A DNA stretch of 56,310 nt, the filler included, from Jimgerdemannia flammicorona (lineage: Eukaryota): the NCBI GenBank assembly GCA_003990765.1. It is 3 parts of 3 records of this genome, joined end to end, with 100 filler letters (N's around TTAATTAATTAA, not from the genome) between each part and the next. Parts side by side here need not be neighbours in the genome. Positions count along the whole stretch, not along the records: positions 18,817 to 37,516 come from RBNJ01002132.1; 2 more parts are not named here. The stretch is one strand, 5' to 3'. The notes under the pieces were generated by a model. It was not told the DNA's origin. It did no database searches and worked only from the letters and a program-made list of their open reading frames with translations. Shown here piece after piece: positions 8,158 through 54,605 of the stretch. Position 1 is the first letter of the stretch. Each line of letters begins with the position of its first letter. The position numbers were made by a program, and so were the translations under genes.

Positions 8158-8837
8158 CTAGGACGGCCTTACTTTATCTTCAATATAACAAAGCCTACCT
8201 AAGTAATTACAACGATGGCAGAGTGCACTTCGACATCCCTTCTTATCCAATTTGCATCCTACTCAAACATTTCCCGGTGGGTTGCGTCTGGTGGTGCCAT
8301 CGGTAAAGTGAGCGCCTCATCGCCTTTTCCTCCTCGAACAGTCTAGGCACTCCTTATAAGGAATAGGCTGGATATGAAAGTTGTTTCGGGAGACATCAGT
8401 GAGGCAACATTCTCGCTGGGAGGAGATGGAGAAGAATGTGGGTTGGCAGAGGACTTCTGGCGAATTGGCCATAGCTCCATCGTCGTTTTATATATCGTCA
8501 CTATTTGGGAAGTAGCCATCGTAGGTTTCCAAGCTGCAGAGAGGTTGTCGGGAATCAGGACTGCTGTGCAAGCTTCGGTCCAAAACCCCAGTTGGAAGGG
8601 TGCCCGCGTTGTAGGGAGTTGAACCACTGGTTGAGACGATATTCGCCATTACGATGTCATGAAGCTCCGACTAGGGGTGGGTTTGAAAGATATTCATGTT
8701 GGCTTCTTGCCAAATCGGATAGGGATTGAAGAGAAACAAGGGTTAGAAATAAGAAGGTATTCAATATTATGAAGATAGCAATGTCTCGAGGCTTTGGGAG
8801 AATGACGGAGTATTGTGCGGTATGAATTTTTGCTCAT
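8158..8837 (-). pseudogene. Inverted decayed paralogue of the Zn2Cys6-like gene
   Basis: Minus strand reads MSKNS..(frameshift)..ILPKPRD...SELHDIVMANIVSTSG...PYKECLDCSRRKRR*GAH...RNPPGNV*VGCKLDKKGCRSALCHRCNYLGRLC. It contains frameshifts and TAA/TGA stops. Confidence 0.85.
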
Positions 8838-14251: not shown

Positions 14252-14957
14252 TTACTTCTTAAGGCCAACGCAAACCTCGGAACCGATGTCAAGGTTATCG
14301 CCACTCCTGTGAAGACCCTTATTCCAGTTGAAGAGGTTATCCATAGAGATGCCGTATTCTGCAACGACTTTCTCGCAGTAGTCGCCTTCAACGACCCTGT
14401 GGAACTTATTACAGGCACAATTGAACGTGCCCTTAGGGTGCCCAGCGATCTTGCACATGCCCGTAGTAGCGGGCTTCGTGGGCTCCTTCGTGGGCGTCTT
14501 CACGGGCTCCTTGGTGGGCTTCTTCGCGGGCACGGGCTTCTTCGCGGGCACGGGCTTCTTCGCGGGTACGGGCTTCTTCGCGGGCACGGGCTTTTTCAGG
14601 CGCACGGGCGAAGTCTTCATGCCCTTGATGTGAGTGCAGACGTAGGTGCCTATGTCCAAGTTGTCGCAATTCTCGTGGAGGCCATCGTTCCAGTCGAAGA
14701 GCTGGGCAAGAGTGATCCCGGCCGCCTCAGCAACGCGGTAACAATTGTCACCTTTGCAAACTGTTATGTGCGTAGAAAACCTCGTTAGGTCGACAATATT
14801 TGTGATGCGAGAATAAATCCGTATCAGTTGTAGATCAAAGCAGATACGAACCTTGATGGAACTCGTCGCATCTGGGATCGAACCTGCCTTTGGGGGCGGC
14901 GGCGGTAGTGGACACGAGGGCCAAGGTGACTGCAGCGGCAAGAGTGAAGAACTTCAT
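14252..14957 (-). CDS. Secreted two-LysM-domain protein (LysM effector-like, chitin-binding), 204 aa; exons 14957-14852 and 14760-14252
   Basis: Signal peptide MKFFTLAAAVTLALVSTTAAAP. The 91-bp intron 14851-14761 (GTTCGT...CTAAC...ACAG) restores the frame. Fungal Cys-type LysMs CDEFHQVCKGDNC...WNDGLHENCDNLDIGTYVC and CNKFHRVVEGDYC...WNKGL...NLDIGSEVCV flank a Lys/Pro linker. Confidence 0.92.
14478..14610 (-). repeat. Coding minisatellite: 18-bp (KKPVPA) x4 plus 12-bp KxPT/KEPV-type units
   Basis: cacgggcttcttcgcggg is repeated on the + strand. Confidence 0.9.
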
Positions 14958-20728: not shown

Positions 20729-22204
20729 TTAAACAAGATCTTTTATCCGATACTTGGATTGAAGCTCAGTCACGGCGGGGTACACCTTATCCGGGAGGTC
20801 AGTCCATGCTATCCCATGGTTAATTCCATTGACAGGTACGATTACTTTTATCCAGATGCAAAGCCACTACATCGCCACAACGAAGTACGACGCCAAAGTT
20901 GCAAGACCTTTCAGATGTCCATACACACCGTAAATTGTTCCAACACAGAAACACCCACGCCGATGACCTTCTCCTCATGATAGAATCGAAGTTAGTGAAC
21001 TCCTCACCCACCAACCCAATTTCGCTGTAGGTACCCTCGTTGAACATTCCAACGGACTCGACCACTACGTCCCATTCGCACAACCCTTCCGCAGTCGTCG
21101 TCCCGGGGACGGAGATCCGCACCGTCTGCCTCGTGGACGCCGGGGTTTCGGCAGAAAGCTTCACGACCTTGCCGTTATTCGAGACGACAACGCGCGAACC
21201 AACCTTTGAGCGATCCCACTGAGGATCTTGGCTCCATCGATTTTGACTTTTCGATCCCCGGACGGGTGCCCCGTTGGGCACACGGTGTTCTTGCATGCGT
21301 GGTGACAAAAGGCCATATAGTGCGGAGACGTCTCCATAAACCCGTCGACCGCCTCCGTAAGGCTCTTAAGGCGATGCGGGCACACAAGGGTGAAGTCCAC
21401 ATGCCTCACCATGTTCAGCAGCAACGAATTATTTCCTAGTCGAAATTATACTGCCGCATCCCGAGACCATACTGGCGACATCATGCAAGACATCATGACG
21501 CTCCGCAATATCGGGTCCAGACTCTTCGGCATGCGCCCAAACCCAGTCGACGATGCACAGCAACAGGTCGTATTCGGGGGTGACGAAGTCAGAAACGTAT
21601 GGTGCAGTGAAAAGCAGCTGAGGAGCCTCTTCGGAAAGATTTGTCAACTCTCCAATGGCAAGCTTGCGAGTGTAGAAGGGGTTGAGGAGCACGGCTTAGA
21701 GGTATTTGCTGGCATCACTACATAGGATGGAGGCGGCGGCTCCGTTGAGGAGGGTTGAGGAGACACCAAAATCGGTAATACCCTGGGCGCGCTCGAGCAC
21801 TATTGCCATGAGCTTTTGGAGGAGAAGGAAACTTGCTGCGCGGTAAATGTCTACCGCGATAGTGACGGTAGTGTCGTCGATCGATTCGGTATAAATGAAT
21901 CCGAGGATGACGGTGAGCTCTAGGGAGTTGATGTCGTGGAGGACGTTTCGCTGGGAGATACTCTCTTGCATGTTACCGTACAGCATTTCCTTGAAGACGG
22001 GACACCTTTGGGGTCACATGGCATTAATGAATATTAGATAGATCTCCAAAAGCCATTAGACACAATCAAGAAGTGATTGAACGCACCTGGCAGCCAGCAC
22101 AGCACGGCAAGCACCAAGTTCGACGTCATCGGCGCAGACAATGGTGACATCATGGTAGGTAGTGTCCGTCCATATCTAAGACCACTGTTGGATTGTACGT
22201 CCAT
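20729..22204 (-). pseudogene. Pseudogenised tandem copy of the BTB-SPRY gene
   Basis: Collinear with 23583-25093, including the intron. It has a net 22-bp deletion in exon 1, an in-frame stop after SKYL and further frameshifts, and appears in the track as ORFs 21696-21986, 21429-21692, 21161-21424 and 20820-21308. Confidence 0.88.
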
Positions 22205-23582
22205 GTTTAGTCTTTGGGTTACAGCTTTGCTTGGGTTACCGATTCACGAGACGTCGACAGATGGCGCAGTGGGTTAATTGTCGATAATAAAAAGGGCAGT
22301 ATGCGCGGTGTGCCAGAAATTGTTGGATCTAGGTTAAAGAAGTCAATTACGGTATAAATTTATCCCATCAATTGCCCTTCCCACTGACGGATGTCGGGGG
22401 CTTGTTTTCATTTTCGTAGGATTATTTTGACTCCTTGTCCTCAACCTATTCGACGTCCTCATTCCACCTGCCCTTGGCTACACCCCGTTGAGAAAGAAAA
22501 TAACACCTCCACAACATCTAAATATCCGCCGTACACCGCCTACGTTATATACTTGGTTAATCTCAAGCACGATGTAAAACCTATGGCGCTTTCCGGCAAT
22601 GGATGTACAAAAAGAAGAACTTTACATTCGACGAATATCATGAGCGGTGGCTGTTCGTGCTGCTCTCTATGTAACAACTGGCAATGAGAATGTCGGCATA
22701 AAAATAATTTGGTGCTCAGGGCATTTTACACGACATTAGTGGGGAGCCGGGCAATACTATTTATTGGCGTCATCCATAGTTCTCAGTTATAAGAGTTAAA
22801 CCCAAGTTTATCGTATCCGTTGCCGATCAATAAAAACATGCTCGAACCAACTAGCGACATTTTTGAAGTTCACTGCGGGTTTTAATTGATCGTTTGTAAT
22901 TCAATATTAATATTTGGAAACCTTGGATGCATCAGAGGAATTGTCTCCGTAGAGCATCATTCGAAAAACCAAAAGGTGCACCTTCCACACATCCGACACA
23001 ATTTTCTCGGGAATCTGGATCAAAAGGTCTTCGATTGTCAAGATGCAAAATGCGGCTGATCCGGCGGCCTCATCAAGGTTAAAATTCTAAGTTCATCGGC
23101 ACAGCTTTATCAGCAACATAGGTGTGGACTTATAAATCGGAGATGACGCTCTGACGGTTATTCACGTATATACCAATATTTTGAGTACAGGCTGTGACTC
23201 TATATCACGTTCGGCTAGCTTACTATCGTAGCTCGGTTGCGGCAACAATTTGCGAGTTTGTATGTCAACGTAATATTTTCAGATTAAAAGGTGGGACTAA
23301 TACATAACCACTGCGAGCCGCGTAAGCTGATCCAACAGAACCTTTCCAGAATTTTTAAGCGCCACCACCAACAATTTGTATAAGTTTAAAAGGCAGAAAA
23401 TTGAGAGCAGAATATTCGGAACCTGAATAATTTTGTATTGGAAAATATGAACAAAGATAAAGAAACATGATAGACTTATAGCAGAGGGTATGAAAGAATG
23501 CATACATGAATCCATAAATACCCATCAAACAGCTAAGGAATGAACGAAGAGTTGCGTTCACAAAAAGGAGGCGAGACTAAAA

Positions 23583-25093
23583 TTAATCATGATCTTTTAT
23601 CCGATACTTAGATTGACCGCTTAAGGTCACAGCAGGATACACCTTATCTGGAAGGTCGGTCCAAGCAATCCCTTGGTTAACCCCATTGAAAGAAAGGGCA
23701 CAAGTACGGTTGGCTTTATCCAAATGGAAGGTCACCACATCGCCACTCTGAAGCATTGCGCCATATTCACGTGTCTCTCCCGACCCCCATACCTGCCGAA
23801 AATCTTCCCAACACTGGAATGCCCACGCCGATGAATTTTCCCACATGGTGCCATTGAAATTAGTGAACTCCTCGCCTACCAACCCAATCTCTGCAAAGTC
23901 CACCTCGTCGAAAAATCCGATGGACTCGACCACTACGTTCCATTCGCAGAGCCCTTCCTGAGTCCTCGTTCCGGGGACGGAGATCCGCGCCATCTGCCCC
24001 TCGGACCCAGGGGTTCCGGCAGAAAGCTCCACCACCTTGCCGTCGTCTGAGATGACAACGCACGAATCGACCTTTGACCGATCCCACTGAATTTTTTGAC
24101 TTTCTCGATTTTGACTTTTTCGATACTCGGACGGGTGCCCCGTTGGGCACACGGTGTTCTTGCATGCGTGGTGACAAAAGGCCATGTAGTGCGGGGACGT
24201 CTCCGCCAACCCGTCGACTGCCTCCGTTAGACTCTTTAGGCGATGCGGGCACACAAGGGTGAGGTCCACATGCTTTAACATGTTCAACAGCAGCGAATTA
24301 TTTCCTAGTCGAATTTTACCGTCGCATCCCGGGTTCATACTGGCGACATCACGCAAGACACCACGGCGCTCCGCAACATCGGGTCCCGGTTCATCGGCAT
24401 GCGCCCAAACCCAGTCGACGATGCACAGCAGCAGATCGTATTCGGGAGTGACGAAAGTAGACGCGTAGGGTGCAGTGAAGAGCAGTTGGAGAGCCTCTTC
24501 GGAGAGATCTGTCAACTCTCCTATGGCGAGCTTGCGAGCGTAGAAAGGTTTGAGGAGCGCGGCGTAGAGGCTCTTGCTGGCCTCACTCCATGGGATGGAG
24601 GCGGTGGCTCCGTTGAGGAGGGATGAGGATACGCCAAAATTGGTAATATCTTGGGCGCGCTCCAGCACCATTGTCATGAGCTTTGGGAGGAGAAGAAAAC
24701 TTGCTGCGCGGTAAATGTCTACCGCGATAGTGACGGCGGAGTTGTCAATTGATTCGGTGTAGATGAATCTGAGGATGACGGTGAGCTCTGCAGAGTTGAT
24801 GTCGTGGAGTACGATTCGGTGGGAGATGCTTTCTTGCTTGTTACTGAACAGCATTGCCTTGAAGACGGGACACCTTTAGGATCATGTGATCTTAATTAAT
24901 ATGAGATGGATCCCAAAAACCATGAGACGCGATCAAGAAATGAATGAACGCACCTGGCAGCCAACACAGCACGGCAAGCACCAAGTTCGACGCCATCGGC
25001 GCAAACAATGGTAACGTCATGGTAGGTAGTGTCCGTCCATAAGGAGGCAATGTCGTCCTTGAGGCTAAGGCCACTGTTGGATTGCACGTCCAT
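23583..25093 (-). CDS. BTB/POZ-SPRY (B30.2-like) domain protein, putative Cullin3 substrate adaptor, 476 aa; exons 25093-24954 and 24873-23583
   Basis: BTB: DVTIVCADGVELGACRAVLAAR|CPVFKAML...ELTVILRFIYT...IYRAASFLLLPKL. The 80-bp intron 24953-24874 (GTGCGT...AAAG) restores the frame. SPRY C-terminus: EWNVVVE...EIGLV...GDVVTFHLD...FNGVNQGIAWTDLPDKVYPAVTL. Confidence 0.88.
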
Positions 25094-26852
25094 GTTGAGT
25101 TTTTGATTACGGCTTTGTTTTGGGTTGCGGATTCAAGGTACGGTGACCGGTGGCGCAGTGATGATGACCCTAAATGTGACGGTTCCACAAAGATTGATCG
25201 ATAATAAATGGGACGGGATACGAATGCTTTGTAGAAGGAACGTGTTGGATCTATATGGGCGTGTTTGCTAAGGGATTCACTATGAAATGCGTCCGGGGGA
25301 CCGGGAGAGCCAGAAAGGCGACCTGTCGTAAGGGGATTCCTGGGATATCCGATCCCAGCTTGAATGCATCCGTTCTGAATGTACGCTGCTTTCAGATTTC
25401 AGACTGCCAAACTAGACTGCCTTTTTTTTAAAGCGGAAGAATCCAGTATTTATACATAATTTCCTTACTAAAAATACTACATGTATATGGGGATCCCGCA
25501 TAAGTCCGTTTATGCGCCCTTCGGCCCGCCCGAGATGTATTTTTAGCGGTTTCAACCTGCGTAGAACCGTTTCCGAGCCTTCTTCGCGTGATTCTAGATT
25601 ATCGTTCCACGGCCTGATTTGGACGCGTCAAATTTTGAGGCACGTGCCCTTACACTAAATAAAGGACTGGCCTGTTACACCTAAAAAAGTTGGATCTATC
25701 GAGACGCAAAGCAACTCTGTTTGCCGATTACGCGCTTCTTGGCTGAAATGTACGGAATTCCGAAATCTCAAATCTGAACGTTAGTATATTCGGCAAGCAT
25801 CCCATATTTATACATTATTTCTGACTAATACTTTAGCCCACGTAAGGTCATATAAAAAGGCCTCGAGAGTCGGACGGCTTGGCGTAGTGTCCGCACTAAA
25901 TCGCATCCTCGTCGTCACCGCCAATCCCGCGGGTGGTAATGATGGTAATTTCGGTGGACTCTAGGCCGAGCTTCTTGCCGATAACAGGGAAGAGGCAACG
26001 CACATGCTTGGCCTCACGTGATGGGACGAACGCGGTTTTCTCGGGTCTGGTCGGTGTGTTCTTAGTAACGATATGGCCTTCCATGGAGAGATCATACCGC
26101 TGGCTGATTCGACTTTTCCTCGAACTTGATCTTGTAGTTGACCCGGGTACCCATTACGGTAGCTGCTGGTACTGTTAGACCTTTGTGGTCGAGCTTGCAG
26201 AGAACTAACTTGGAACCATGCAGATTATTTTATGAAGAAAATTATTTTATGAAACACGCCGAACGTATGATGGTCTTGGTGATGGTGCGGCCCATTTTGG
26301 TGGTCCCTGCGAAAAAAATAAAATAAAGAGATTAATCGATGTATTAATATACGAGATAATCTAGAAACTATTTGAAAATTGTGGTGTGGACCTTGGTCTC
26401 GTCGATGGCTCGATTGGGGCGGCGAGGACGAGGCCGACTGGCGGGTAGGGATATATGTACGCGCGATTAGCTTGCGCGTGACGTATTCAGATGATTGTCA
26501 TTGGTGCCTGTCTGAAGCGGCTTCCAAATCATATGAGATTTCCGATGCTACGAATGCTTGATCAGCCTGAATTTATCGGCCTACGTACCTTACATATATC
26601 TATCTCCGTCGAAACGACTAATAATATATGCAGCCCGCATATGCACGATATTCCAACTAACAGTTTTACTTCCTATCTGTTAGGATTTGCAACTCGTTTC
26701 AAGTAATTTGTGGCTTAGGCTGACGATGACGTCGCAATATCCATGTCTTCATCGTCAATTACAATGCATAAAAGTGTGAAACATGTAATAGCTTGCTCTT
26801 TGTAAAGTAGAATATCCTATAATAATTACAATAGGTTATGAGCCCTGCTTTG

Positions 26853-27040
26853 TATGGTGCGCCATCAGGGTCAAAACTATCAAATCAAAAAAAAATGGAT
26901 TGATGATAAAAATTTGACCAAAAAAATTAGATTGATGAATTTAATCAAAAAAATTAGATTGATGATAAAAATTTGACCAAAAAAATTGGATTGATGAAAT
27001 TTGACCAAAAAAAGTGGATTGACAAAATTTGATCAAAAAA
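26853..27040 (+). repeat. Left TIR and subterminal repeats
   Basis: Units of aaaaattggattgatga(taa)aaatttgacc, reverse-complementary to 36920-37151. Confidence 0.9.
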
Positions 27041-27691
27041 GTAGATACTTATATTACTCAAGGCTATATATATATTACATGTGTCAAGGTGCATCACATT
27101 TATCAAGACACATCATATCTATTAAATCATTCCATTCAGCCATAAGATCAATCAGATTCAACTTACATAAGTTTCTATTCTCTTTGCTAAATTTCTATTC
27201 CCTTCATCAAATTTTTATTTTCTTTATCAAATTTATTTCTATTCCTTTCTATTTTCTTCACTAAATTTCCATTTCCTTTGCTAAGATTCTATTCCCTTCA
27301 CAAAGTTTCTGCCTCCACTGTTCTCTCTACTGCTGATTTTCCATTTTTTCTACTATCAAGTTATTGTTTTCCTTCTCTCTATTATCAAATTTCCATTTTC
27401 TATTCTCTTCACCACCAAAGTTTCTATTGCCTCTACTGCCAACAAGTTCACTCTGTTCTCTGCAAAAAGGGTTTCTTTCCTCTACTATTAAGTTTTCATT
27501 TTTCAATCCTTACATCATATTTCCATTTTCCAATCACTTCATAGTCCCCTCTGCCACCAAGTTCTATTTCCCCTAACACCAAGTCTCTATTCACCCTACT
27601 GCCAAGCCTTTGGTTGCTAGTATATCTGAGCAGATAAATATAATTTATTTGAGCATATTACACATTATACATATAAAAGAGACAGTTAGTA

Positions 27692-30251
27692 ATGAGTCAG
27701 TTCTGTGAATATAAGTGTTATAAAACTTGTCATGGGCTCTCAGATTCTTGCTGAGAGATATATCTATAGAAAAGGACTTCACTTAGAAAGACAATCTTCA
27801 ACTTTGTATGCATTTATAGATTGCTATCATATGTGACAATTTCTGCCAAAAAAAAGAAACCCAAAAATCCCTCAACAAACTAAATATTATTTGCATTTCT
27901 TTAAGAAACATATTTCAGAAGTCTTTCCTGATATTTGGTCATAGATCCTGAATTGCTACAACATTTGGTAGCTCTTGCTCAGTACCCATAAATATAACAA
28001 ATCCTCCAGTAGCTACAACAAAGTGAACCTGTTCAGCAAGCTGCAAGTAATACCTCTATGTAAAGTATATTTATAATAATTATATATTCTAATATTTTCT
28101 AATATGATATGTCTTTTTTTTTTTTAAAAAAAAAAAAAATTAGTTTATTATCTCATCATTTACTATCCTATGTGATGATAGTGCTGTAGTAGTCAATGAA
28201 TGTATATTGACTTCATTTCAATACAAGGACCTCCATATATATGGATACAACTTTGTCAAGGTCAAGAATTATACTATCCTTCACCCTCTTCATACACCTG
28301 ATACTGAATTCAATACTGAGACCTTAATACACTTCTTTGGTAAGGGAAAATGGTATATTGAGGCCTGAACCATAATGCTCTTACCATCTGTACTTGCTGC
28401 ATCTGAGGAGGATGACAACTCTGGTAAGTTTTAAAGTTCTCTACTGATTTAAAGCTAAGATTGATTATATATATATAAGTAATATAATATAATATATATT
28501 GTATGACTAATTCTAATATTGATATTTTAATATCAAGTTATCACTCCTATTGAACTGCTTTGCAAGTTTTGCAATCAGCTATATTACAATATTCTGAAAT
28601 ATACTTTATATGAAACTATTTGTCCAAGAAATACTAGTGTCAGATATATATATATTTTTTAAGAATTGCCAGTTTTTCTTGTGTATATAATTTATAAAAT
28701 AATTATTTATAATTATATTTGATGAAACTACTGAATCTGAGCAATCAATAGTGATAATTGATGACAAAAACGATCTAACTGCTGAATCATCTCTCAGGTA
28801 ATAAGATATTATATATAATATAATATTTTATATATTATATTGATTATTTATTCACATATATAATTATATATTAGTTCAAGTCTTCCACTAATGGATGACC
28901 TTCTGACAGCTCTGTCAACTCTGGACTCATATGATACTGCAGAAAGCATTAACTCTGAAAGCAATAGTTGAGAGATAGCCTTTTTTGCCAATCTTACAGA
29001 CTCTTATAATGGAGAATTATTGATAAATTCACTGCAAACAATAAGGCATTTGGCTATTGATGCTGGACTACTGTACAATATATAAGATAATAGAATATTA
29101 GGATTTTAAATATGTATGCATTTCATTTTAAATACTTTAGTACATCATTCAACACTTTTTGAAGATTTATTTTAGTTTTATTCATCTCTGGAGTCCAGCT
29201 CAGATATACTCTGCTTGGTCAAAGTTACTGTCATAGGTGAATCTGCAGTAGACCAGGGAGGAGTTGCACAAGAAGCCTTTTAAATTACATTAGACCATTA
29301 TATTGAACAATAGTCATCTTTGATGGAGGGCAATGAGAAATTTCTCCCATATACAGAAAGTTATTTGAATATTGACAAGCATGACTATTGGACCTTAGGA
29401 TGGATTATTGTGGCCTCATTTCTCAACTATGGACCTATACCTGATTGTCTATATCCTGCTTATCTTCTTTATGCTTGCTATGATTCGATTGGTCATGAAG
29501 ATGTATTGTCATTTAGTAAGTGATATGGCTTCCTCCTTCAAGCACTAGACCTTACTGAAACAATAAAGGAGATATGGTCTGAATCTTTAGAGTCAGTTAG
29601 ATTTTATATTCTTCTTTATATTTTTTTTAATTATAAATTATTTAATTTAAAAAATTCTTTTTATCTAGATTGATATCTACCTTTGAAGAGCTTGGTATCA
29701 GTCAGAATATACAGAATATAAAGCATAAAGACAAGAATGAAGTTCTCTCATTGATTACAAAAACTCTTCTGATCTGGAAACAACAACCTGCTCTTGACCA
29801 GCTTGTTTCAGGATTCAATATCAGAAACTTCATCAATAATTTCATTCATCAACCACAAAGATTTCAACCAATTGCATAACTTTTTTACTCTTCAGTTCTC
29901 TACAGTAAGGAAGATATTACTAATGCAATTGATTGGCCATCATGCTCAGCTCCTGGAACAAGGATCAGTATTTGTGTCCAGCTTTTCAAGGAGGTTCTCC
30001 ACAGATGGTCTACCAATGATCCTCAACTTCTTAGTCAGTTGGTGTAGTTCTGGAGTGGTGCATGAAACATTCTAGTTCAAAAATGATTGCAGCTTAACAT
30101 TCACTATTTTGGAGTAACCAGCTCATATTGGCCAGTAGCTCATACTTGTAGACCAATACTGGAAATTAGAGATAACTATGAAATAGGAGAGTAGCTTGCA
30201 GACAGCTTAGTTGCTGCATTTAATGAGGGAAGTATCATAACTCTTCTATAG
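27692..30251 (+). pseudogene. Transposon-borne multi-exon HECT E3 ubiquitin ligase (G2E3-like HECT), decayed; start approximate
   Basis: KVTVIGESAVDQGGVAQEAF (29221-29280); DYWTLGWIIVASFLNYGPIPDCLYPAYLLY; QQPALDQLVSGFN; catalytic-type motif WPVAHTCRPILEI (Cys at 30147-30149). AT-rich GT-AG introns, Cys-rich upstream exons, many stops. Confidence 0.8.
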
Positions 30252-31304
30252 TGTTTTATATAAACAACCTTTCATTCCTATATCTCTTATTCTGTATCTC
30301 TACCTCACATTTTGTTATACTTCAGTTATATTACTGTGATATTTGCTTCTTTGCTCTATATCTATCTTGCTGTTGTATCTCTGTATCTAATTATATTACT
30401 ATCTAGTATTTCTTTGCAGCATTATTATAACTCATATTCTTCTGCTCTATGATTATTTATATATCTTAACTCTTTATATCTCTGCCTCTGTGATTCTTTA
30501 ACCCTACCTCTGAAATTTCTTATATCTCTGATCATTTGCCTCTTTGCCCTATGACTCTTTGCATATCTGTACATTTTTTCTTATATCTCTTCTATATGAT
30601 CATCTGCCTCTTTGTCTCTATGATTCTTTGTATCTCAACTCTTACTTCTCTGGTCCTGCAATTTTCTACTATACTCCATGGTTCTTTATATATCTGTCCT
30701 ACAATTCTTTGTCTCTCTGCCCCAACCTGTATTCATAGACAGAATGAAACCTTGGACAAACATTACAAGGCCCTACCACAGCCTGTAAGCTATAGCAATT
30801 GCTACTGTATACTCTGTTTACTATTTAAGAAATAGGTACTAGATTGGATCAGATTGCTACCATATTGAACTGGGTCAGCCTAGTAATTCTTTTCATTTCT
30901 GTTCCTTTATTCTTTACCTCTATGCTCTGCAATTTCTTGCATCTTCGGCCTGCAATTCTTTGCTTCACTGCTTCTGCAACCCTTTGCCTCTCTGCTTCTA
31001 TGATTCTTTACATCTCTGCTATGCAGTTCTTTGCATCTCTACCCTGAAATTCTTTGTATCTCTACTCTATGATTTATTGAACTTCCACCCTATATTCACA
31101 CTTTATAAACTCACACTTACTTGCATCACTATATTCTGTATTTCTTTGTGCATCTGTATTCTTTGCAACTCCTAAACTATTATTTGATCTTGAACTAGCA
31201 ATTATAATAAATTCATACAGAATATGCTGTTGAAATGATTAGAAAATAGTGTGGCAAATGATTTTACACCATATGATTAAATGCTCATGTGATTTCGACT
31301 TTCA

Positions 31305-31960
31305 GATAAAACATGTTCAAACTCTCACCCACATTGCTCATTGCCAAGTCTAACTTACAGTTAGTAATATAAATATTTTTGCCACTATTGGATCCTTAGA
31401 CAAAATACACCAGCACTGCTCATTGCCAAGTCTGACTTATGGTTAGTGATATAAATATTTTGCCACTCTCAGATCCTCATATCCAAACTCTCAAAACGTG
31501 TTCAAACTCTCACCCACACTACTCACTGCCAGATCCTCAGACAAAATGCATTCAAACTCTCACCTGTACTACTCACTGCCAGATCCTCAGACAAAACACA
31601 TTCAAACTCTCACCCATACTGCTCACTACCAGATCCTCAGATAAAATACATTCAAACTCTCACCTACACTGCTCATTACCAAGCCTGACTTATAGTTAGT
31701 TTTTATAATCAGACAAAATACATTCAAACTCTCACCCACACTGCTCATTACCAAGTCTGACTTATGGTTAGTTTTTATAATCAGACAAAACACATTCAAA
31801 CTCTCACCCACACTACTCATTGCCAAGCCTGACTTATGGTTAGTTTTTATAATCAGACAAAATGTATTCAAACTCTCACCCACACTGCTCCAAATACCCA
31901 ACTCAGATAAAACGTATGTCCAAACTCTCAAGCCACACTGCTCATTGCCAAGTCTGACTT
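31305..31960 (+). repeat. Minisatellite array (45-72-bp units) inside the transposon
   Basis: About nine copies of (c)attcaaactctcacccacactgctca(t/c)tgcca, with alternative tails agtctgacttatggttag or gatcctcagacaaaa. Confidence 0.9.
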
Positions 31961-32229
31961 TTTTTACCATTATTGGATCCTTTCACTAACTATGAATCTC
32001 CCTCACTCTCTCAAAACCCAGCTCAAGTACCAAAATGACCTATATAAAACAAACTGCAAAGAAGTCAACCTTTGGCAATGTAGTCCAATGAAGCCTATCT
32101 CAAAGTATAATTATGACACCAACCAAGCATCCAGCTCGAGTGGCCAATATAACCAGACCATCTATTCAGATATATTATATAGAGGGGGTAAAAAAAAAAA
32201 AAAAAAAAAATGGATGAGATATATATATT

Positions 32230-33075
32230 TTCAGATGAATGTCTCTATGACTAAAGCCTTTTTTATTTTTTATTCTTTTGGATATTTTGGGATGTCTCTA
32301 TGATGGAAGCCTTAATATCTTTCCTGATGAATGTCTCTGTGACCAAAGCCTCTTTTATTTTTTATTCTTTGGATATTTTGGATAAATGTCTCTATGACTA
32401 AAGCCTTAATATGTATCCTCTTTTTTATTTTTATTCTTTTGGATATTTTGGGTGAATGTCTCTGGACTGAAGTCTTAATATCTTCTTTCCTGGTGAATGT
32501 CTCTGTGACTGAAGCCTTTTTTATTTTTATTCTTTGGATATTTTGGGTGAATGTCTCTGTAACTAAAGCCTTAATATCCTCTTTTTTACATATTTTTTAT
32601 TCTTTTGAATATTTCAGGTGAATGTCTCTATGACTGAAGTCTTAATATCTTCATTCCTGGTGAACATCTCTGTGACCAAAGTCTTTTTTATTTTTATTCT
32701 TTGAATATTTTGAGTGAATGTCTCTGTGACTGAAGCCTTAATATCCTCTTTTTTATTTTTTATTCTTTTGGATATTTGGATGAATGTCTCTGTGACTGAA
32801 TTCTTAATATCTTCTTTCCTGATGAACATCTCTGTGACCGAAGCCTTTTTTATTTTTATTCTTTAGATATTTTGAGTGAATGTCTCTGTGACTGAAATCT
32901 TAATATCCTTTTTTTTATTTTTTATTCTTTGGATATTCTCTGTGACTGAAGCCTTAATATTCTCTTTTTTACTTTTTATTCTTTGGATATTTCAGGTGAA
33001 TGTCTCTGTGACTGAAGTCTTAATATTCTCTTTTTTATTTTTTATTCTTTGGATATTTCAAGTGAATGTCTCATG
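32230..33075 (+). repeat. Minisatellite array (33-60-bp units) inside the transposon
   Basis: More than 15 copies of gtgaatgtctctgtgactgaagcc(ttaatatc)...ttttattctttggatattt. Confidence 0.9.
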
Positions 33076-33136
33076 TCTCTGCAACTAATACCTCAAAAAT
33101 TTTCTAATTTCTATTATCAAATTGACTTATTACTAG

Positions 33137-34014
33137 AATTCTCAAACCATTAATATTGGTTACATCAAGGGTACCATATGCTACCTGTGTGGGACCGAAG
33201 GCTGTATTCTTGAAGGATGTAGTATCAGCAACTGTTCCAATGCCATCTGCATTGAGAATGATCGCAGTCATCCATATATACCACTATTTATTACTGAAGG
33301 AGCCTGGCAATGTCCATCTCATGATGGTAAAGCTGATACAACTGTTTGGTACAATGGGAATTGTCTCATTGACATCCAGACACTTGAATTGGCATCATAT
33401 TTGGAGTGGGAGATCCTCTTTTCAGCAACTGGGTTGATATTTTCTTTGTATAGTATGTATACTTTTATATTTATATTTATTTGCTAATATTGGTCGGATT
33501 TTAGCTAATAAGATATTTTTTATCTATACAGCAAAACCAGATCCTTTTTACAAAGCACTCTTTTTCAACTAGAAATATGCTAAAGGCTGCTGCAATAAGC
33601 ACTGATCAGATGTAATGTTTTTTTTTTTTTTTTTTTTTTAATCTATTTTTTAATATTATATTCTAATTTAATATCATACTTTTTTCATCAAGATGGTGAC
33701 CTGAAGCTAGCAAATAGCTATTAATCCTGATACATACTAATGATGAGGGTAATTTATGGTTTGAGATCACTAAAGATGGATAGCCATGGGCAGTCCCATT
33801 GAATGAGGTATGTTTACAGAGTGTCTTTAGGTTTTTTATTAAATAAAATACTCATTTATTTACAGTTTTTTGCTAGCATCTTCACCAATAGCAGAACATA
33901 TAATATCAACATAGTTCTTTTCATCTGTGGCTCCCTAATACACTCTACCAAGTCCAATACTAAAAAGAAGTTGCAAGAGAAGACTGTCCAGGTAATAAAT
34001 ACATTGAAGAGATA

Positions 34015-34052
<38 letters not shown>

Positions 34053-34435
34053 TAAGTATCTATTTAAATATAATATATTTTATATATAGCTAATGATTAA
34101 ATTTATATTTATATAGACCAAATATTGGGAAAGTTCTTCTTTTTACACAACAAGATCTTCTACCAAATCAAATTGCTAGAGATATTCTGAAGATTATTGA
34201 GCAGTATGAGATGTGTGGTGTTCTATTTGTAGAAGCTGTATACCAAAGAGAGAATCTGTCAAGTCCTGTCTGGGTGTTGGAAAATAGTGAGGGAATATAT
34301 ATTCATAGAAAATTGTTATCTTGTTCTAAACATCCACATGTATACAAAAGTAGTCAGCACTATATGATGGTTAAATGTAGTGAGAATGATAGATATGTTG
34401 TTGAGATTGTAGAATGTAAGGCTTCTCGTAGATAA
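33137..34435 (+). pseudogene. Transposon-borne multi-exon gene with a PHD/ADD-like zinc finger, decayed; a possible upstream exon lies near 31992-32187
   Basis: 33179-33322 reads CYLCGTEGCILEGCSISNCSNAICIENDRSHPYIPLFITEGAWQCPSH. AT-rich GT-AG introns follow, and the last exon ends ...VVEIVECKASRR*. Confidence 0.6.
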
Positions 34436-34619
34436 TAAAAAATAAATGCAATTTTATTTATAATATTATTTGGTTGCAAATTTGATAGCTAATATCACTT
34501 TAAATTATATATAGTATAGCTAAATAATATAGATATTTATATATATCTTTATCCTTAGAGAAAGAGTTATTCTAGAGAAAAGAGTTTTCTTTCTAAGAAG
34601 CTAGGTGAATCTAGCATAA

Positions 34620-34777
34620 TAAATATATTAAATTTGAACTTGATTTTGTTAAGTTATTAAATTTTAAAGTTTGTCTCTAAATTTCAAATCAAATTGAACC
34701 TCAATTCAATTTGATTTGATTCCAATGACCCCTAATTCAATTTAATTGAAATTGATTCAATTTGTTTACAAGTACTA
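34620..34777 (-). mobile_element. Decayed member of the hAT-MITE family nested in the large transposon
   Basis: Reverse complement TAGTACTTGTAAACAAATTGAATC...GAATTGAGGTT resembles the left arm of 12260-12591 after CpG loss. Confidence 0.55.
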
Positions 34778-34799
34778 GGCTGAACAGTTCAGGTGATAT

Positions 34800-36560
34800 A
34801 TATTATCAAATAGTATGATTGGGCAATTTGTGTAAAGAGTAAAGAAAATAAAACAGCCAATGGCTCAGTAGAAATATGTGTAATCAGAATTCAGAAAGTC
34901 AGAATACAGGGGTCTAATACATATATGTAAACAAGAAGTATAAACTATTTCTGAATGATCAATATGAACTCCAATATAATCTCTGAAAATGCAAAGACTG
35001 AACTATTCCCAAGATACAAATACATATATCAGTATTAATTATATATAAAGTAATTGCAATACAACCTCTATTGCTCTAACATATATATCCATTCCCCAAA
35101 GATCAGATGCTGCCAATGGATCTATCTCTGTTTAAGGCTGCATTTTCATTTCATCAGAAAGGCCAATGTCCTGAGGAGGCTCTATTTCTTTAGATTCACT
35201 ACCTATGCCAACTGGACCATCCTAATCAATTCCAAAATCCTCATATATTCCTCCAAGTATATCAACAATATACTGGTCATCTTCTTTTGCATCAAATCAA
35301 TTCCGTTGCTCAGCATTAGATATGCCCAGAATGAACAACTACCATGGGGTTCTATTATTCTCCATTCTAATAGGATGTCAATTCCAACTCTCCATAAATG
35401 ATTGGAGGACAGCTTGAATTCAGGAAATATATATGAAGTGAAGACACTATATATGAACTGAATTGTCAATATTCAAGAATCCCTGATACTCAAGTTTATA
35501 AAAAATCTTAAAATAGCAATAAATTTAAAGTTAGAGAATATATTAAATAATATTATTTAAATATATATATATATATAATCTTACCTTATAAAATATTCTC
35601 AATGTGCAACTCCATACATCTCACCAAAATCATTCAATTCATTGATTATGTATAGATTTTCCAGCAATAAAACTGCTACAGCCAATTCCTCTTGTTTACA
35701 ATATAAACTCACAGACAGCATAATTTTCACCTCCCTTATCACCTCAAACTTAACTAGGACAACTCCAAGATCAGATTTCTTATAAAAATGCTTCCATCAT
35801 TATTTCTTTCTGATTATTATTGTTTAACATAAGAAATGTTATTGCCCGAGTCTTGCCATCAATACTGCCATGTACAACTATCTTCCATCTATCTAATCCA
35901 TGATATCCATCAATATGCCAGAGAGAGTTTGGTCGCTCAACCCAATAGACTCATCACTGAATACTCTCAGCCCATCATATAGAGACACCAATAGGATCAA
36001 TTACTTATAAGGCTCTTTGAATTCAATGTTGAGGAATATGTATTCCATGGCTTCGCAATAATCCAGTTAGTGTTTGCTCTCCACTATAAGCATCTGTTGT
36101 CTACTTAAGATACCTTATCATATTCTCCAGATCAGTATCAGAAATATCTGTCCATTGTCTACAGATTCTATAATCATGTAATTATCTCTTGATAGTTGAT
36201 TCTGAGACACCAAAGAGTCAAGCAATATCAGAATTTGTTAGACACTCTTCTACATTAGTAATAAGAATCTCCTTGCTGATAAGATAGTCTGGATGTCTAC
36301 CTTATCCAGTCCAAATAACTTGTGGTTGAATAGGTAATAGTGCAACTTCATCTGTATCAACATGAGTATGGATTCTAAGAAGCAGTGAGCAGGCTAAGTC
36401 AAGATTGCTCTGGATCAATAGATCAGATAATAGAGTTGTAAGGTGATTGAGATTATTTGCAAGCTGATTCAATTGAAGAAGGTGGAGGTCAAATTCAGGA
36501 TGATTGCCATTATTTCACAAGTTCAATGCATTTTGAGCATCTTGTATAATTTGGGAAGCT
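34800..36560 (-). pseudogene. DDE integrase-core transposase (IS3/IS481-related, IS3EU type), decayed, intron-containing; ends approximate
   Basis: VYWVERPNSLWHIDGYHGLDRWKIVVHGSIDGKTRAIT...PS*V*GDKGGEN...IAGKSIHNQ*IE*FW*DVW, then an intron starting at 35584, then FYKLEYQGFLNIDNSVHI*CLHF...WNWHPIRMENNRTP. Most stops sit at conserved Arg positions. Confidence 0.88.
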
Positions 36561-36795
36561 ATATGAAAGAAGTTCTGTATTTGATCCAGTTTGTGTAGTA
36601 TATATAGCTTACTTGGCTTATATGGTTTATATGACTTATATGTTTTGTATTTGCTCACAGCTTACTCAGCTTACACAGCTTGCACAGTTTGCACAGTTTG
36701 CATACCTTGTATAACTTGTATGACTTGTATTACTTATGGATGGTATAGATTATGTAGCTTATGTTAACTTATATATTTGATAGAGATTAGATAGT

Positions 36796-36900
36796 ATAAG
36801 CTTAAGTGGGTGGCATAAGCTTAAGTAGGTGGTATAAGTTTAAGTGGGTAGTATAAGCTTAAGTAGGTGGCATAAGCTTATGTGGGTGATGTAAGCTTAA
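36796..36900 (+). repeat. 19-bp tandem repeat, about 5.5 copies
   Basis: ataagcttaagt(g/a)ggtgg(c/t) repeated. Confidence 0.85.
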
Positions 36901-36919
36901 TTGCTTATAAAAAATCTAC

Positions 36920-37151
36920 TTTTTTTGTCAATCCAATTTTTTTGGTTGTCAATTTAATTTTTTTGATCAAATTTCATTGATCTACTTTTTTGATCAAATT
37001 TTGTCTATCCAATTTTTTTGGTCAAATTTTGTCAATTCAATTTTTTTGTTTAAATTTTGTCAATCTAATTTTTTTGGTCAAATTTTTATCATCAATCCAT
37101 TTTTTTTTTCGATCCATGATTTGATAATTTTGACCCTGATAGCACACTATA
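36920..37151 (-). repeat. Right TIR and subterminal repeats
   Basis: Reverse complement of 26853-27040, followed by GCTTTG. Confidence 0.9.
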
Positions 37152-37516
37152 GCTTTGTTACTATAAGTAAATATACTATGTCTATATAATATAATATAAT
37201 ATAAAATATTTTTCTCAAAATAAATAATAGAAAGATTTAATTATAATAATTGCCATATGAATTAAATATATATGAATTACAGTTTTAATGAATGTAATCT
37301 AGCAGATTACTGGAAATCTCAGAGATCAAAGATTACAATACTACTAAAAACTATAAAGTACTTATAGAGATTTTTTTTATACTTTTAAAATTATAAATAA
37401 GATTAATAATTAATATAATAATAATAAATAAAGAATTAAATATACTAAGAATACTATATATACTTAAGTTCAACTAGTTTATTATATCTCAAAGTCTTGT
37501 CTTTTAATCTTCAAAA

Positions 37517-37616
37517 NNNNNNNNNNNNNNNNNNNNNNNNNNNNNNNNNNNNNNNNNNNNTTAATTAATTAANNNNNNNNNNNNNNNNNNNNNNNNNNNN
37601 NNNNNNNNNNNNNNNN
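37517..37616. other. Artificial contig linker N44-TTAATTAATTAA-N44
   Basis: Same 100-nt structure as 18717-18816. Confidence 0.97.
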
Positions 37617-37658
37617 TTTGTTTGTTTTTTTTTTTTTTTTTTTTTTTTTTTGTTCTAG

Positions 37659-40600
37659 TCTGATGCCAATGAAGTCTACCAGCTCGCACATCGTATTAAT
37701 GAGACACTCCAAGACAAAGCTGAGCTTGACGAGAAGTTAATAAAGCAATTGTCATACCAGGCTTCTGGGGATCTCTCTCCGATGGTCGCTGTATTCGGCG
37801 GGTTGATTGCTCAGGAAGTGCTGAAAGCTGCCAGTGGCAAGTTCCACCCTATCCGGCAATACTTCTACTTTGACTCATTGGAATCCCTACCATCTAACGC
37901 TGACAAATTTACGGAGGACGACACGGCCCCGGTAGGTTTGGACTTGCGTTACGCCTTTGGGTAGACAGTAAACAGTGGACATCCGTATTTCGTCACATCA
38001 ACCTAACAATGAACATACATCACAATTCTTGCCTAGATCGGTTCCCGCTATGACGGCCAAATAGCCGTTTTCGGCCGCGAATTCCAGGACCGTATCGCTA
38101 ATACGAACGAATTCCTCGTTGGCGCTGGTGCGATTGGATGTGAAATGCTGAAGAATTGGGCTATGATAGGCCTGGGCACAGGACCCAGGGGTCGAATTAC
38201 GGTCACTGATATGGATACTATCGAGAAGAGTAATTTGAACAGGCAATTCTTGTTCAGACCTGCTGATGTCGGGGTACGTGTGATTGATTTACATGGATTT
38301 CCGTTGTGTTGGTACGGCTAGCGTATGTAATGGTGTTTGGTAGCGCTGGAGGATCGATATATCATGCGGTTCGATTACAGCTGATCAGAAACCATACTGT
38401 CGACTTCTTCAGAAATTGAAATCGGAGACCGCCGCTGCCGCTATTGCTAAGATGAATCCCGAAACCTTAGGTCATATCAAAGCACACCAAGACCGTGTCG
38501 GTCCCGAGACTGAAAGTATGATATCACATATTTCAGATCATTTTACTAAGCAACGACTACTTTCTTCATTGGAATTTTCACTTTTGGTCATGCGTAAGTG
38601 AATGAACCAACTAAAACGGAATTGTATCCATCATTTCAGACGTGTACGATGATGACTTCTTCGAATCCCTTGACGGTGTTACAAACGCTTTAGATAACGT
38701 TGATGCCCGTGAGTAACAAATTAGTACAGACAACCGCATTTTTTTTTTCTTTTCTTGTTTTGATTTGAGTTATCATCTTGACATTGTATGGCTTTTATAA
38801 CGCTATGATCTTTTATGCATTTGCAGGCAAATATGTAGATAGGCGTTGCGTTTACTTCCGTAAACCGCTGCTCGAGTCCGGCACCCTCGGCACCAAGGGC
38901 AACACGCAAGTTGTCATTCCATTTTTGACCGAGTCGTATGGGTCGTCGCAGGATCCGCCAGAGAAGTCCATTCCTATCTGCACACTCAAGAATTTCCCCA
39001 ACGCAATCGAGCATACCATCCAGTGGTCGCGTGATCTGTTCGAGGGTTTGTTCCGCCAGCCAGCAGAGAACGTGAACCTTTACCTTAGTCAGCCCAACTT
39101 CATCGAAACGTCGCTCAAACAGAGCGGTAATCAGAAGGAGCTGCTCGAATCGCTCCGAAATTTTCTTGTTACGGAAAAGCCCCTGTCATTTGACGAATGT
39201 ATACACTGGGCAAGGTTGAGGTTCGAGGAGTTCTACAACAACAACATCCAGCAATTGCTATTCAACTTCCCGAAAGACTCCGTTAGTTTTTTTTTTTTTT
39301 TTTTTTTTCCCTTTTTCGGGCTCAAATGCGGGGCGGGCGGGTGTGTGTGGATGGGGAATGCATTGCTTCTCAATCATTTGCCCAAACACATGTTCCTAGA
39401 CTAACTACGTGTGATGTATTTTCAGGTTACGTCAACTGGTACTTTATTCTGGTCCGGCCCCAAGAGAGCACCCGAACCGATACAATTCAATCCTGATGAT
39501 GTATGTAACCCATACATTGCCGTCAATGATGGTTAGTTCCATTTTATTAAACAGACTGACTAAATACTAACTCCTTTTCGATTATTCCAGGAAATTCACA
39601 TGGAGTTCATTGTGACCGCTGCAAATCTGCATGCATTCAACTACGGCCTCAAAGGGGAGACAGACCGAGCCTATTTCCGCCGTGTTCTTGCGGATGTAAT
39701 TGTGCCCGAATTCTCGCCCAAAAAGGGGGTCACAATTCAAGTTCAAGAGAACGAGAACGTGCAAGCTGGAGCGACTGCTGGTAAGGATTCTCAATTCCCG
39801 ATTATCAGATGCAGCTGGTGTAGTTGAAGGGGCCTTGTTTGGTTGAATGAGGAATGTTAAAGAGAACCCTCTTTCATCACCCTGTATTTTTCCAGATCAA
39901 GACGAATTGGACCAGATTCTCACTTCCCTTCCACAACCGTCCACATTGGCGGGTTTCCGATTGAACCCGGTGGATTTCGAGAAGGTATGCCACTGTTTTC
40001 CGGATTTTGAATTCCTCAACGTTCAGTTTTAGTGTCAATGTCGTGGACAAGCATCAAAGGTTGCTTTCGTTAACTAATTTTCGTTTTTCTTTCTTCACTC
40101 AGGATGACGACACCAATTTCCACATCGACTTCATCACAGCTGGATCCAACCTGCGTGCTATTAACTATGGCATTGCGCCCGCCGACCGCCACAAGACTAA
40201 GTTCATTGCCGGAAAGATCATTCCTGCTATCGCCACCACAACTGCAATGGTAACCGGTCTTGTATGCTTGGAACTGTATAAGGTAAATTATATAACAAAA
40301 ATTACACACGCTTGACCACGCTCTTATAACAGAACAAAGCTCTAATCGCAACCGTCTTTTTTTGCTGAAACAGATCATCGACAACAAAAAGGAATTGGAG
40401 GCGTATAAGAATGGCTTCGTCAATTTGGCTTTGCCGTTCTTCGGGTTTTCAGAACCGATCGCGATGCCCAAACTCAAGTATCACGATACTGAATTCAGTT
40501 TGTGGGACCGTTTTGATGTCAAGGGTGACTTAACGCTGCAAGAATTCCTTGATTACTTCCGGAATGAACACCAGCTTGACGTGACGATGCTTTCGTGTGG

Positions 40601-41018
40601 CGTGTCCATGCTTTATTCGTTCTTCATGCCCAAGAAGAAGCTGGAAGAGAGGAAGGGAATGAAGTAAGTGGAGTGCACTCGTGTGATGAGTTACTTAATG
40701 CCGATCGTAATAATCCACCGCGTATGTCAATTGTGCAGAGAAAATTGTCTCATTTGCTGTGAATATTTATCATCGCGACCAGGATGTCCAAATTGGTCGA
40801 GAACGTCTCGAAGAAACCCATCCCTGACTACGTAAGGGCTCTCGTGATAGAGATATGCGTGAATGACCGTAGCGGTGAAGATGTTGAGGTTTGTATTCTT
40901 AATGAGGAACTTTGTTGCTTCTGTCCATATATCAGTCGCGGCTCTACGTCGAGTGACTCACTTAACATTCTGGCTGATCATGTAGGTACCGTATGTCCGC
41001 GTCTCCATCAAGTCATGA
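37659..41018 (+). CDS. UBA1: Ubiquitin-activating enzyme E1, 5'-truncated by the contig edge. Exons: 37659-37931, 38037-38273, 38413-38515, 38640-38708, 38827-39281, 39426-39500, 39591-39780, 39896-39984, 40103-40282, 40374-40663, 40783-40888, 40986-41018
   Basis: [59 protein letters not shown]; catalytic Cys in [48 protein letters not shown]-terminal UFD ending [10 protein letters not shown]. All introns are GT-AG. Confidence 0.97.
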
Positions 41019-41463
41019 ATACGATCGTATGCCAACGAGGTTCTAGCTTTCTTTTTGTCGAATTCTACCTTCCCCAATTATTTTGGACATTCTCTTATTT
41101 TGTATATGTTTGCTACATTTACCTCGAGAATAAAATTTGTGTGGTGTGGAAGATATGATATGTTTTAAAGTTTTACGTCCTCTCTAATCTCTTGGGGTGC
41201 ACGTGATCCAAATTCGCATCATCAGTAATTGATGTATCGATATCCTTCATATTCGAATGACTGTAAAAGTTCGTTTGCAAGGTTGTACTTTGAGTGCTTG
41301 GCATTACAGCAATAGCAGGGAAGGGGTTAGCAATCAGCAGCTAGAATAACTGATGCTCTAGACAGCAATATTTGTAACTGCATTTGTATCTCTTTTCTGT
41401 ATTATATACTTGATTCTTCTTGCTGGACATTGGGGATGGATGCATTTGATTGTGCTGTGCAAG

Positions 41464-54551: not shown

Positions 54552-54605
54552 TGAAGTTACACCTAGCCTAATCAAGACACCTCTCAAGATATCAGTCACA
54601 ACACT

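Follow-up and report, generated by a model that had tools for sequence, protein, structure and literature searches.

A decayed IS3EU-like DNA transposon carrying a divergent HECT ubiquitin-ligase pseudogene in Jimgerdemannia flammicorona

Structure and classification of the element

A block of 10,299 bp at positions 26853-37151 of a 56,310-nucleotide stretch of DNA from the fungus Jimgerdemannia flammicorona (assembly GCA_003990765.1; this whole stretch, at its full length, is called the window below) is a single decayed copy of a fungal cut-and-paste DNA transposon that carries, along with its transposase, a gene related to the HECT ubiquitin ligases (the HECT gene). The element is AT-rich, with a GC content of about 31%, and inverted ends delimit it; the window contains neither another copy of it nor a fragment of one. 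In the layout proposed here, the transposase gene would run inward from the right end and the HECT gene inward from the left end, with a Cys-rich gene between them. The boundaries and the transposase are located as follows.

26847-26852: left target-site duplication, the hexamer GCTTTG, with an identical copy outside the right end
26853-27046 (+): left terminal inverted repeat, first letters TATGGTGCGCC, with subterminal repeats of 28-32 nt (AAAATTTGACCAAAAAAATTRGATTGATGA)
35038-36499 (-): transposase pseudogene, with a helix-turn-helix (HTH) at about 36274-36167, a DDE integrase core at 35950-35582 onward, and an intron near 35500-35580
36974-37151 (-): right terminal inverted repeat, whose reverse complement begins TATAGTGTGCT
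37152-37157: right target-site duplication, GCTTTG

Aligned over about 190 bp, the two ends agree in 172 columns and differ by 19 transitions and 10 transversions, and 17 columns are gaps. A repeat search broke the same ends into several inverted pairs (I2-I4, I8, I10 and I12) that are 77-91% complementary, and also picked up a tandem unit (D17). The termini have the form TA..TA: the left end begins TATGG and the right end, reverse-complemented, begins TATAG, the two differing by one G-to-A change. The subterminal repeats presumably serve as binding sites for the transposase.

The transposase is recognizable in spite of heavy damage. The minus-strand stretch from 36499 to 34900 matches the Pfam family PF24764 (rva_4) at E 3.1e-59 and rve at E 0.012, along with HTH families at E values from 6e-4 to 0.03; no zinc-finger family was found in the Pfam scan of this stretch. 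Read by eye, the DD35E triad of the translated protein (P0005) consists of D197, D254 and E289, the last two with the 35-residue spacing that gives the motif its name. The translated stretch (34900-36499) contains 29 in-frame stops, two of which lie beyond 35038, and one intron-like gap.

These features fit published descriptions of the IS3EU superfamily. According to PMC10045372, IS3EU elements have TA..TA termini, usually make 6-bp target-site duplications and lack an HHCC finger, and together with GingerRoot they form a single lineage. In seven species of Pucciniales, PMC12730594 describes IS3EU families with 6-bp duplications, terminal inverted repeats longer than 30 bp and ends of the form TAYGG..CCRTA; these rust-fungus elements carry a TET/JBP gene between transposase and alpha-kinase genes of opposite orientation. 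The J. flammicorona element has the hexamer GCTTTG on both sides, TA..TA termini close to the Pucciniales form, inverted ends well over 30 bp, and a DDE transposase of integrase type that has an HTH but lacks an HHCC finger. It is assigned to IS3EU because of this combination of 6-bp duplication, TA..TA termini, long inverted ends and HTH plus DD35E integrase-type transposase. The likeness to the Pucciniales families extends to the large size, to the presence of passenger genes, and to a second gene opposite in strand to the transposase. The passengers themselves differ: TET/JBP dioxygenase and alpha-kinase genes in the rust fungi, a HECT gene and a Cys-rich gene without a family match here.

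The HECT gene

Two translations were used to analyze the HECT gene, with stops read as X: P0001 (29176-29600, 141 residues) and P0002 (29670-30251, 194 residues). The parts of the gene are listed below, the upstream exons being uncertain.

27692-28971 (+): possible upstream exons; ATG at 27692, and open reading frame (ORF) pieces at 28144-28430, 28531-28662, 28703-28801 and 28864-28971
28972-29595 (+): putative first half of the HECT N-lobe, frame 1; likely intron at about 29086-29175; GESAVDQGG motif from 29236
29281, 29311 and 29521 (+): in-frame stops in the first N-lobe half, with a TGA just upstream at 28969
29596-29668 (+): AT-rich spacer with GT..AG ends, at which the reading frame switches
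29670-30251 (+): second half of the N-lobe and C-lobe, frame 0; terminal TAG at 30249-30251
29877, 30045, 30063, 30084 and 30192 (+): internal stops in P0002, frame 0
30132-30149 (+): PVAHTC with the catalytic Cys, within the motif WPVAHTC; Cys codon TGT at 30147-30149

An earlier reading of this DNA, made from the sequence alone (the sequence-only reading), had proposed that a transposon-borne HECT domain lies here and that it retains the catalytic PxAHTC motif, and a match to the HECT profile was expected if this was so. That match exists. P0002 scores 26.0 bits against Pfam HECT (PF00632), above the family cut-off of 23.9 bits (E 8.6e-6), with residues 19-187 aligned to profile positions 136-300 of 306. 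The Cys of WPVAHTC falls on the catalytic Cys of the solved ligases E6AP (PTSHTC) and HUWE1 (LPSAHTC). The location of the gene within the transposon is likewise borne out, since it lies between the matching inverted ends and the 6-bp duplication and has undergone the same CpG loss as the rest of the element (see below).

Taken by itself, however, the Pfam match is borderline, because a six-frame scan of 26000-38001, in strings of 4000 residues, reported HECT in none of the six frames at E <= 0.1; the match emerges solely when the 194 residues of P0002 are scanned on their own. Against PDB sequences, P0002 alone gave weak matches to the E6AP C-lobe (E 0.25). One might therefore suspect that the likeness to HECT arose by chance in decayed, AT-rich DNA: the score lies just 2 bits above the cut-off, and AlphaFold models are useless here, with AlphaFold2 mean confidence scores (pLDDT) of 40.3 for P0001 and 40.9 for P0002 modelled with its relative P0003, too poor for a fold search.

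The relative P0003 brings this suspicion close to refutation. A HMMER search with P0002 over 1,835,955,588 representative proteins returned a single protein at E <= 0.001, P0003, with an E value of 8.6e-5 and 30% identity to P0002 over residues 68-172. P0003 is an unnamed protein of 129 residues, alone in its cluster, encoded on a metagenome contig of 1274 bp. It is free of stops over its whole length and is itself a HECT protein by Pfam (E 1.8e-10), and its nearest Atlas clusters are HECT clusters in 30 of 30 cases, consisting of short HECT proteins that are mostly from chordates. Both sequences contain FWSG, P[IV]AHTC (PIAHTC in P0003) and L[DE]IRDNY, and their C-termini fall at the same position. 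When a profile built from P0002 and P0003 was run against PDB at E <= 1, 51 of the 56 sequences matched were HECT ligases, with the catalytic Cys aligned; the best match was HUWE1 (29.8 bits, E 4.3e-6), and affinity to a particular HECT subfamily was not seen. The other five were unrelated hydrolases with E values near 0.1. Because an independent relative and the two-sequence profile both match HECT ligases, the second N-lobe half and the C-lobe can both be taken, on sequence comparison, as real.

The C-lobe, judged from the same alignments, is complete: it has its catalytic Cys and stops 33 residues past it, a spacing usual for HECTs (34 in P0003). From 29670, frame 0 reads ...QLV-stop-FWSGA-stop-NILVQK-stop-LQLNIHYFGVTSSYWPVAHTCRPILEIRDNYEIGE-stop-LADSLVAAFNEGSIITLL-stop, and the segment WPVAHTCRPILEI, in the C-lobe, lies at 30129-30167 on the plus strand. 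HECT ligases, of which E6AP, HUWE1, SMURF2 and Pub2 are solved examples, share with this gene the xPxAHTC motif, a catalytic Cys about 33 residues before the C-terminus, the second N-lobe half that falls within the profile, and a GExxVDxGG-type motif at the expected distance upstream. The gene departs from the usual HECTs, as represented by the aligned PDB chains, in having FWSG where those have F-x-T-G and, past the Cys, IRDNY where they have L-P-x-Y. Unlike canonical HECT genes, it also sits inside a transposon and is a pseudogene.

The first half of the N-lobe is a more tentative assignment. The sequence-only reading had both the start of the N-lobe and the C-lobe in view, and here the two must be separated: the Pfam match is confined to P0002, whereas P0001, which covers the N-lobe start and a segment described as G2E3-like, has no match in Pfam and no HECT match in PDB. 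The first half is suggested by the GESAVDQGG motif at the expected upstream spacing, and its frame contains 3 stops in 140 codons compared to 9 and 12 in the other two. Up to 29595, frame 1 reads ...VTVIGESAVDQGGVAQEAF-stop-ITLDHYIEQ-stop-SS...YWTLGWIIVASFLNYGPIPDCLYP... The segment ..NYGPIP.. may resemble the N-lobe of G2E3; the G2E3-like HECT proteins of animals have PHD/RING-like fingers N-terminal to the HECT domain.

The domain was also said to be readable across introns. This is true of its motifs, in that GESAVDQGGVAQEAF (from 29236), LGWIIVASFLNYGPIP, FWSG and WPVAHTCRPILEI can all be read on the plus strand, but the reading is interrupted by stops and by ill-fitting phases at 29596-29668. 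P0001 and P0002 contain 8 internal in-frame stops in 334 codons (3 in P0001 and 5 in P0002) in addition to the terminal one, and for this reason the HECT copy is regarded as a pseudogene; no open reading frame for a HECT ligase exists in this copy of the element, which is dead. The HECT frames are nonetheless depleted of stops, with 10 in 407 codons (28864-29085 included) versus 25 in 404 and 37 in 404 in the alternative frames. There are no frameshifts within the pieces and only the single change of frame across 29596-29668, a spacer that is probably an intron, judging from its sequence, though the phases fail to join cleanly. Further upstream, stops number 26, 31 and 29 per 390 codons in the three frames of 27692-28971, so that none of the three is depleted. 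An alternative genetic code was considered as the source of the stops and ruled out, since in the standard code the genes nearby stay open over as many as 430 codons.

The decay has a distinctive signature. The ratio of observed to expected CpG is 0.07 for the element, 0.03 for the HECT gene and 0.09 for the transposase, compared to 1.07 for the left flank; 18 CpG are left in the element where 251 are expected, which amounts to a loss of 93%, and TpG and CpA are in excess. Classical Neurospora-type repeat-induced point mutation was rejected as the cause (TpA/ApT 0.83, (CpA+TpG)/(ApC+GpT) 1.55, CpG observed/expected 0.07). The loss fits instead the CpG/TpCpG-directed hypermutation of repeats that PMC3318451 describes in Pucciniomycotina. 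Codon usage bears the same mark: CGN codons account for 0 of 7 Arg codons in the HECT frames, whereas the figures are 17 of 20 for a BTB-SPRY gene nearby and 5 of 8 for a gene that encodes a ubiquitin-activating enzyme (E1).

This kind of mutation bears directly on the Cys motifs near 27700 and 28560, which the sequence-only reading had offered as possible zinc fingers. MSQFCEYKCYKTCHGLSDSC (27692-27754) has four Cys codons, every one of them TGY, with a TGA after them, and the three in 28531-28662 are TGT or TGC; they may be former CGY Arg codons. No zinc-finger family was found upstream of the HECT domain in six frames at E <= 0.1, nor for 28531-28662 at E <= 10. Because hypermutation turns CGY Arg codons into TGY Cys codons, and because no family matches, these motifs should not be taken as fingers.

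Origin and possible role of the HECT gene

We consider it somewhat probable that the HECT gene is a genuine passenger of its transposon family, and that the family formerly produced a functional HECT enzyme. The gene lies within a structure created by a single insertion, with one duplication and matching ends, and its domain runs to the natural HECT C-terminus with the catalytic Cys included. The sequence comparisons also argue that the domain belongs to a very divergent HECT lineage rather than to a recently captured host ligase, because it scores 26 bits against Pfam HECT and has one relative in 1,835,955,588 proteins at E <= 0.001, at 30% identity. This distance argues against a recent capture of a host gene of the Rsp5/Tom1 type. 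An active E3 in the ancestral element is plausible, though unproven.

The distance from canonical HECTs also bears on the alternative that the gene is a transduplicated host gene, captured by one IS3EU lineage in the manner of Pack-MULEs and carried as passive cargo of no use to the transposon, perhaps without ever having been expressed from it as a functional ligase. A long separate evolution accounts for this distance, and for a relative at 30% identity, better than a recent capture would, and the domain still reaches its natural stop and keeps the catalytic Cys. On the other hand, a single copy was observed, its upstream exons are unrecognizable, and HECT is not mentioned for IS3EU in the literature examined; in addition, DNA transposons of rust fungi passively swap passenger genes between superfamilies, as reported in PMC12730594. 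On balance, passive cargo is regarded as unlikely, without being far-fetched.

In another alternative, the HECT gene is foreign to the IS3EU element: it would belong to a nested second element, or it would be a host gene that two IS3EU ends have enclosed to form a composite. Large elements often contain nested insertions, and about 5 kb of minisatellites and a further gene without a family match (described below) separate the HECT gene from the transposase. The repeat search, however, revealed no inner pair of inverted repeats, no pair of long terminal repeats and no second target duplication around 27.5-30.3 kb; the CpG loss is uniform over the HECT gene, the transposase and the entire element; and one 6-bp duplication is common to both ends, as from a single insertion. 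A nested or composite origin is accordingly judged improbable.

Several results weigh against the view that the HECT gene is an integral and once functional passenger. Some have been given above: the absence of HECT from the whole-frame scan, the lack of any match for P0001, and the internal stops. To these can be added that only one copy of the element has been observed, and that copy is dead, and that none of the upstream ORF pieces of the HECT gene matches a Pfam family. P0003 could be a host gene. No intact full-length relative emerged from word-index protein searches in which P0002 and P0003 were each compared with longer proteins and their alignment with proteins of similar length; these returned nothing other than P0003 itself. 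A metagenome scan with the HECT alignment gave 483 pattern matches, none of which was confirmed, and one with the transposase gave 114, again with none confirmed, the patterns chosen for the latter having been poor. The element itself does not match TET/JBP or alpha-kinase families in a six-frame Pfam scan at E <= 0.1, and the published rust IS3EU families are described with TET/JBP and alpha-kinase cargo and not with HECT. Finally, any benefit of the gene to the transposon, whether anti-silencing or control of the transposase, is speculation by analogy. One further candidate relative, a 23-residue match at a locus (L001) on a viral contig, was set aside as chance, because the ORFs there look bacterial or phage-like and include no HECT gene.

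If the HECT gene is nevertheless a passenger of long standing, a tentative history can be sketched. The gene would have joined the element before silencing, and after silencing CpG-directed C-to-T hypermutation would have wrecked all of the genes of the element. In HECT enzymes generally, an E2 carrying ubiquitin binds to the N-lobe, and ubiquitin is passed to the catalytic Cys as a thioester and from there to a Lys of the substrate. In the same way, the AHTC Cys of the ancestral protein would have accepted ubiquitin from an E2, for delivery to a target picked by the N-terminal part of the protein. The transposon might have benefited by removal of a host silencing or repair factor, or by control of its own transposase, and such a role would parallel that of the TET/JBP passenger genes in the IS3EU families of rust fungi. 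That an IS3EU lineage in rust-type fungi encodes its own highly divergent HECT E3, selected as a weapon against the host or as a regulator of the transposase, is possible but rather doubtful on present evidence.

Genes of the ubiquitin system are known from other transposons, including the OTU protease of Ginger1 and the ULP1 protease of some MULE and CACTA elements. In these cases, too, an enzyme of the ubiquitin or SUMO system lies beside a transposase, but the enzymes are proteases that remove a modifier, whereas a ligase adds one. A literature search found no paper with both HECT and IS3EU and, in titles and abstract openings, nothing on a transposon-borne HECT gene. The word HECT is absent from PMC12730594, PMC10045372, PMC6839031 and bioRxiv 10.1101/2021.09.26.461848, and six short motifs of the element occur nowhere in the available part of the supplement of PMC12730594. 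The element may thus be described as a known type of transposon carrying a new passenger gene, with the comparative evidence still thin.

If an IS3EU lineage does keep such a ligase by selection, this would be the first known case in which the regular genes of a DNA transposon include a ubiquitin ligase, a counterpart to the TET/JBP dioxygenases that in related elements are directed against DNA methylation. A ligase that marks host proteins for destruction would be a new form of transposon counter-defence, akin to the tricks of viruses and of bacterial effectors. Should intact copies exist, they would provide a small, self-contained HECT enzyme whose targets might point to the host machinery of transposon control. 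Should the gene be no more than dead cargo, what is left is a decayed IS3EU insertion of the ordinary kind, of use chiefly for repeat annotation and as a warning that CpG hypermutation makes Cys codons and stops from Arg codons.

Other features of the element and of the window

Between the HECT gene and the transposase, the element contains two further features.

30300-33100: minisatellite arrays with spacings of about 20, 50, 72 and 54/66/96/162 nt (direct-repeat families D1-D3, D5, D6, D10 and D15)
33137-34435 (+): third gene of the element, with a Cys-rich ORF at 33137-33487 and an ORF at 34097-34435 in the same frame

Nearly 3 kb between the HECT gene and the third gene is taken up by the minisatellite arrays. 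The two ORFs of the third gene (116 and 112 codons) are stop-free, and its frame has 11 stops in 433 codons compared to 30 and 41 in the other two frames, although the remainder of the element is riddled with stops. The Cys-rich ORF reads CYLCGTEGCILEGCSISNCSNAIC...WQCPSH. It matched no Pfam family, and an Atlas look-up gave a best score of 0.76 with no usable match; for the ORF at 34097-34435, Pfam returned one sub-threshold match only, with E 0.096 and 12.9 bits where the cut-off is 27.

To the right of the transposon along the window lies the E1 gene (37157-41200, plus strand), with ThiF, SCCH and UFD domains. Its apparent beginning, at about 37660, falls in mid-protein and follows an AT-rich stretch that contains two runs of 44 N (37517-37560 and 37573-37616), and its first 300 or so residues were not found in 24900-26852. 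The gene may be truncated, or one of its exons may be hidden or may lie elsewhere. That it sits next to a transposon with a ligase gene is probably a coincidence.

To the left of the element, on the minus strand at 20800-25050, the BTB-SPRY gene is present as a tandem duplicate with a spacing of 2868 nt and an identity of 71-91%; the right copy is open for 430 codons. Parts of Ty3/gypsy type were found in two places: gag followed by a dUTPase domain at 54567-56027 (plus strand), and an integrase zinc-binding domain at 45270-47303 (minus strand). Read by themselves, the Pucciniales-type IS3EU ends, the CpG hypermutation, the LysM and BTB-SPRY genes and the Ty3 elements with dUTPase would suggest a host from the rust group of fungi. 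A gene-sized inverted duplication (4190-4860 and 8165-8825) has arms that are 71-78% complementary and contains a Cys-rich stretch, KVCVGCKLDKKKCLGIPCTRCKQFSRLC, that recalls fungal Zn2Cys6 domains, with no Pfam match at E <= 0.001. A LysM-domain protein is encoded at 14252-14953 on the minus strand, and contains an 18-nt tandem repeat that encodes PVPAKK units.

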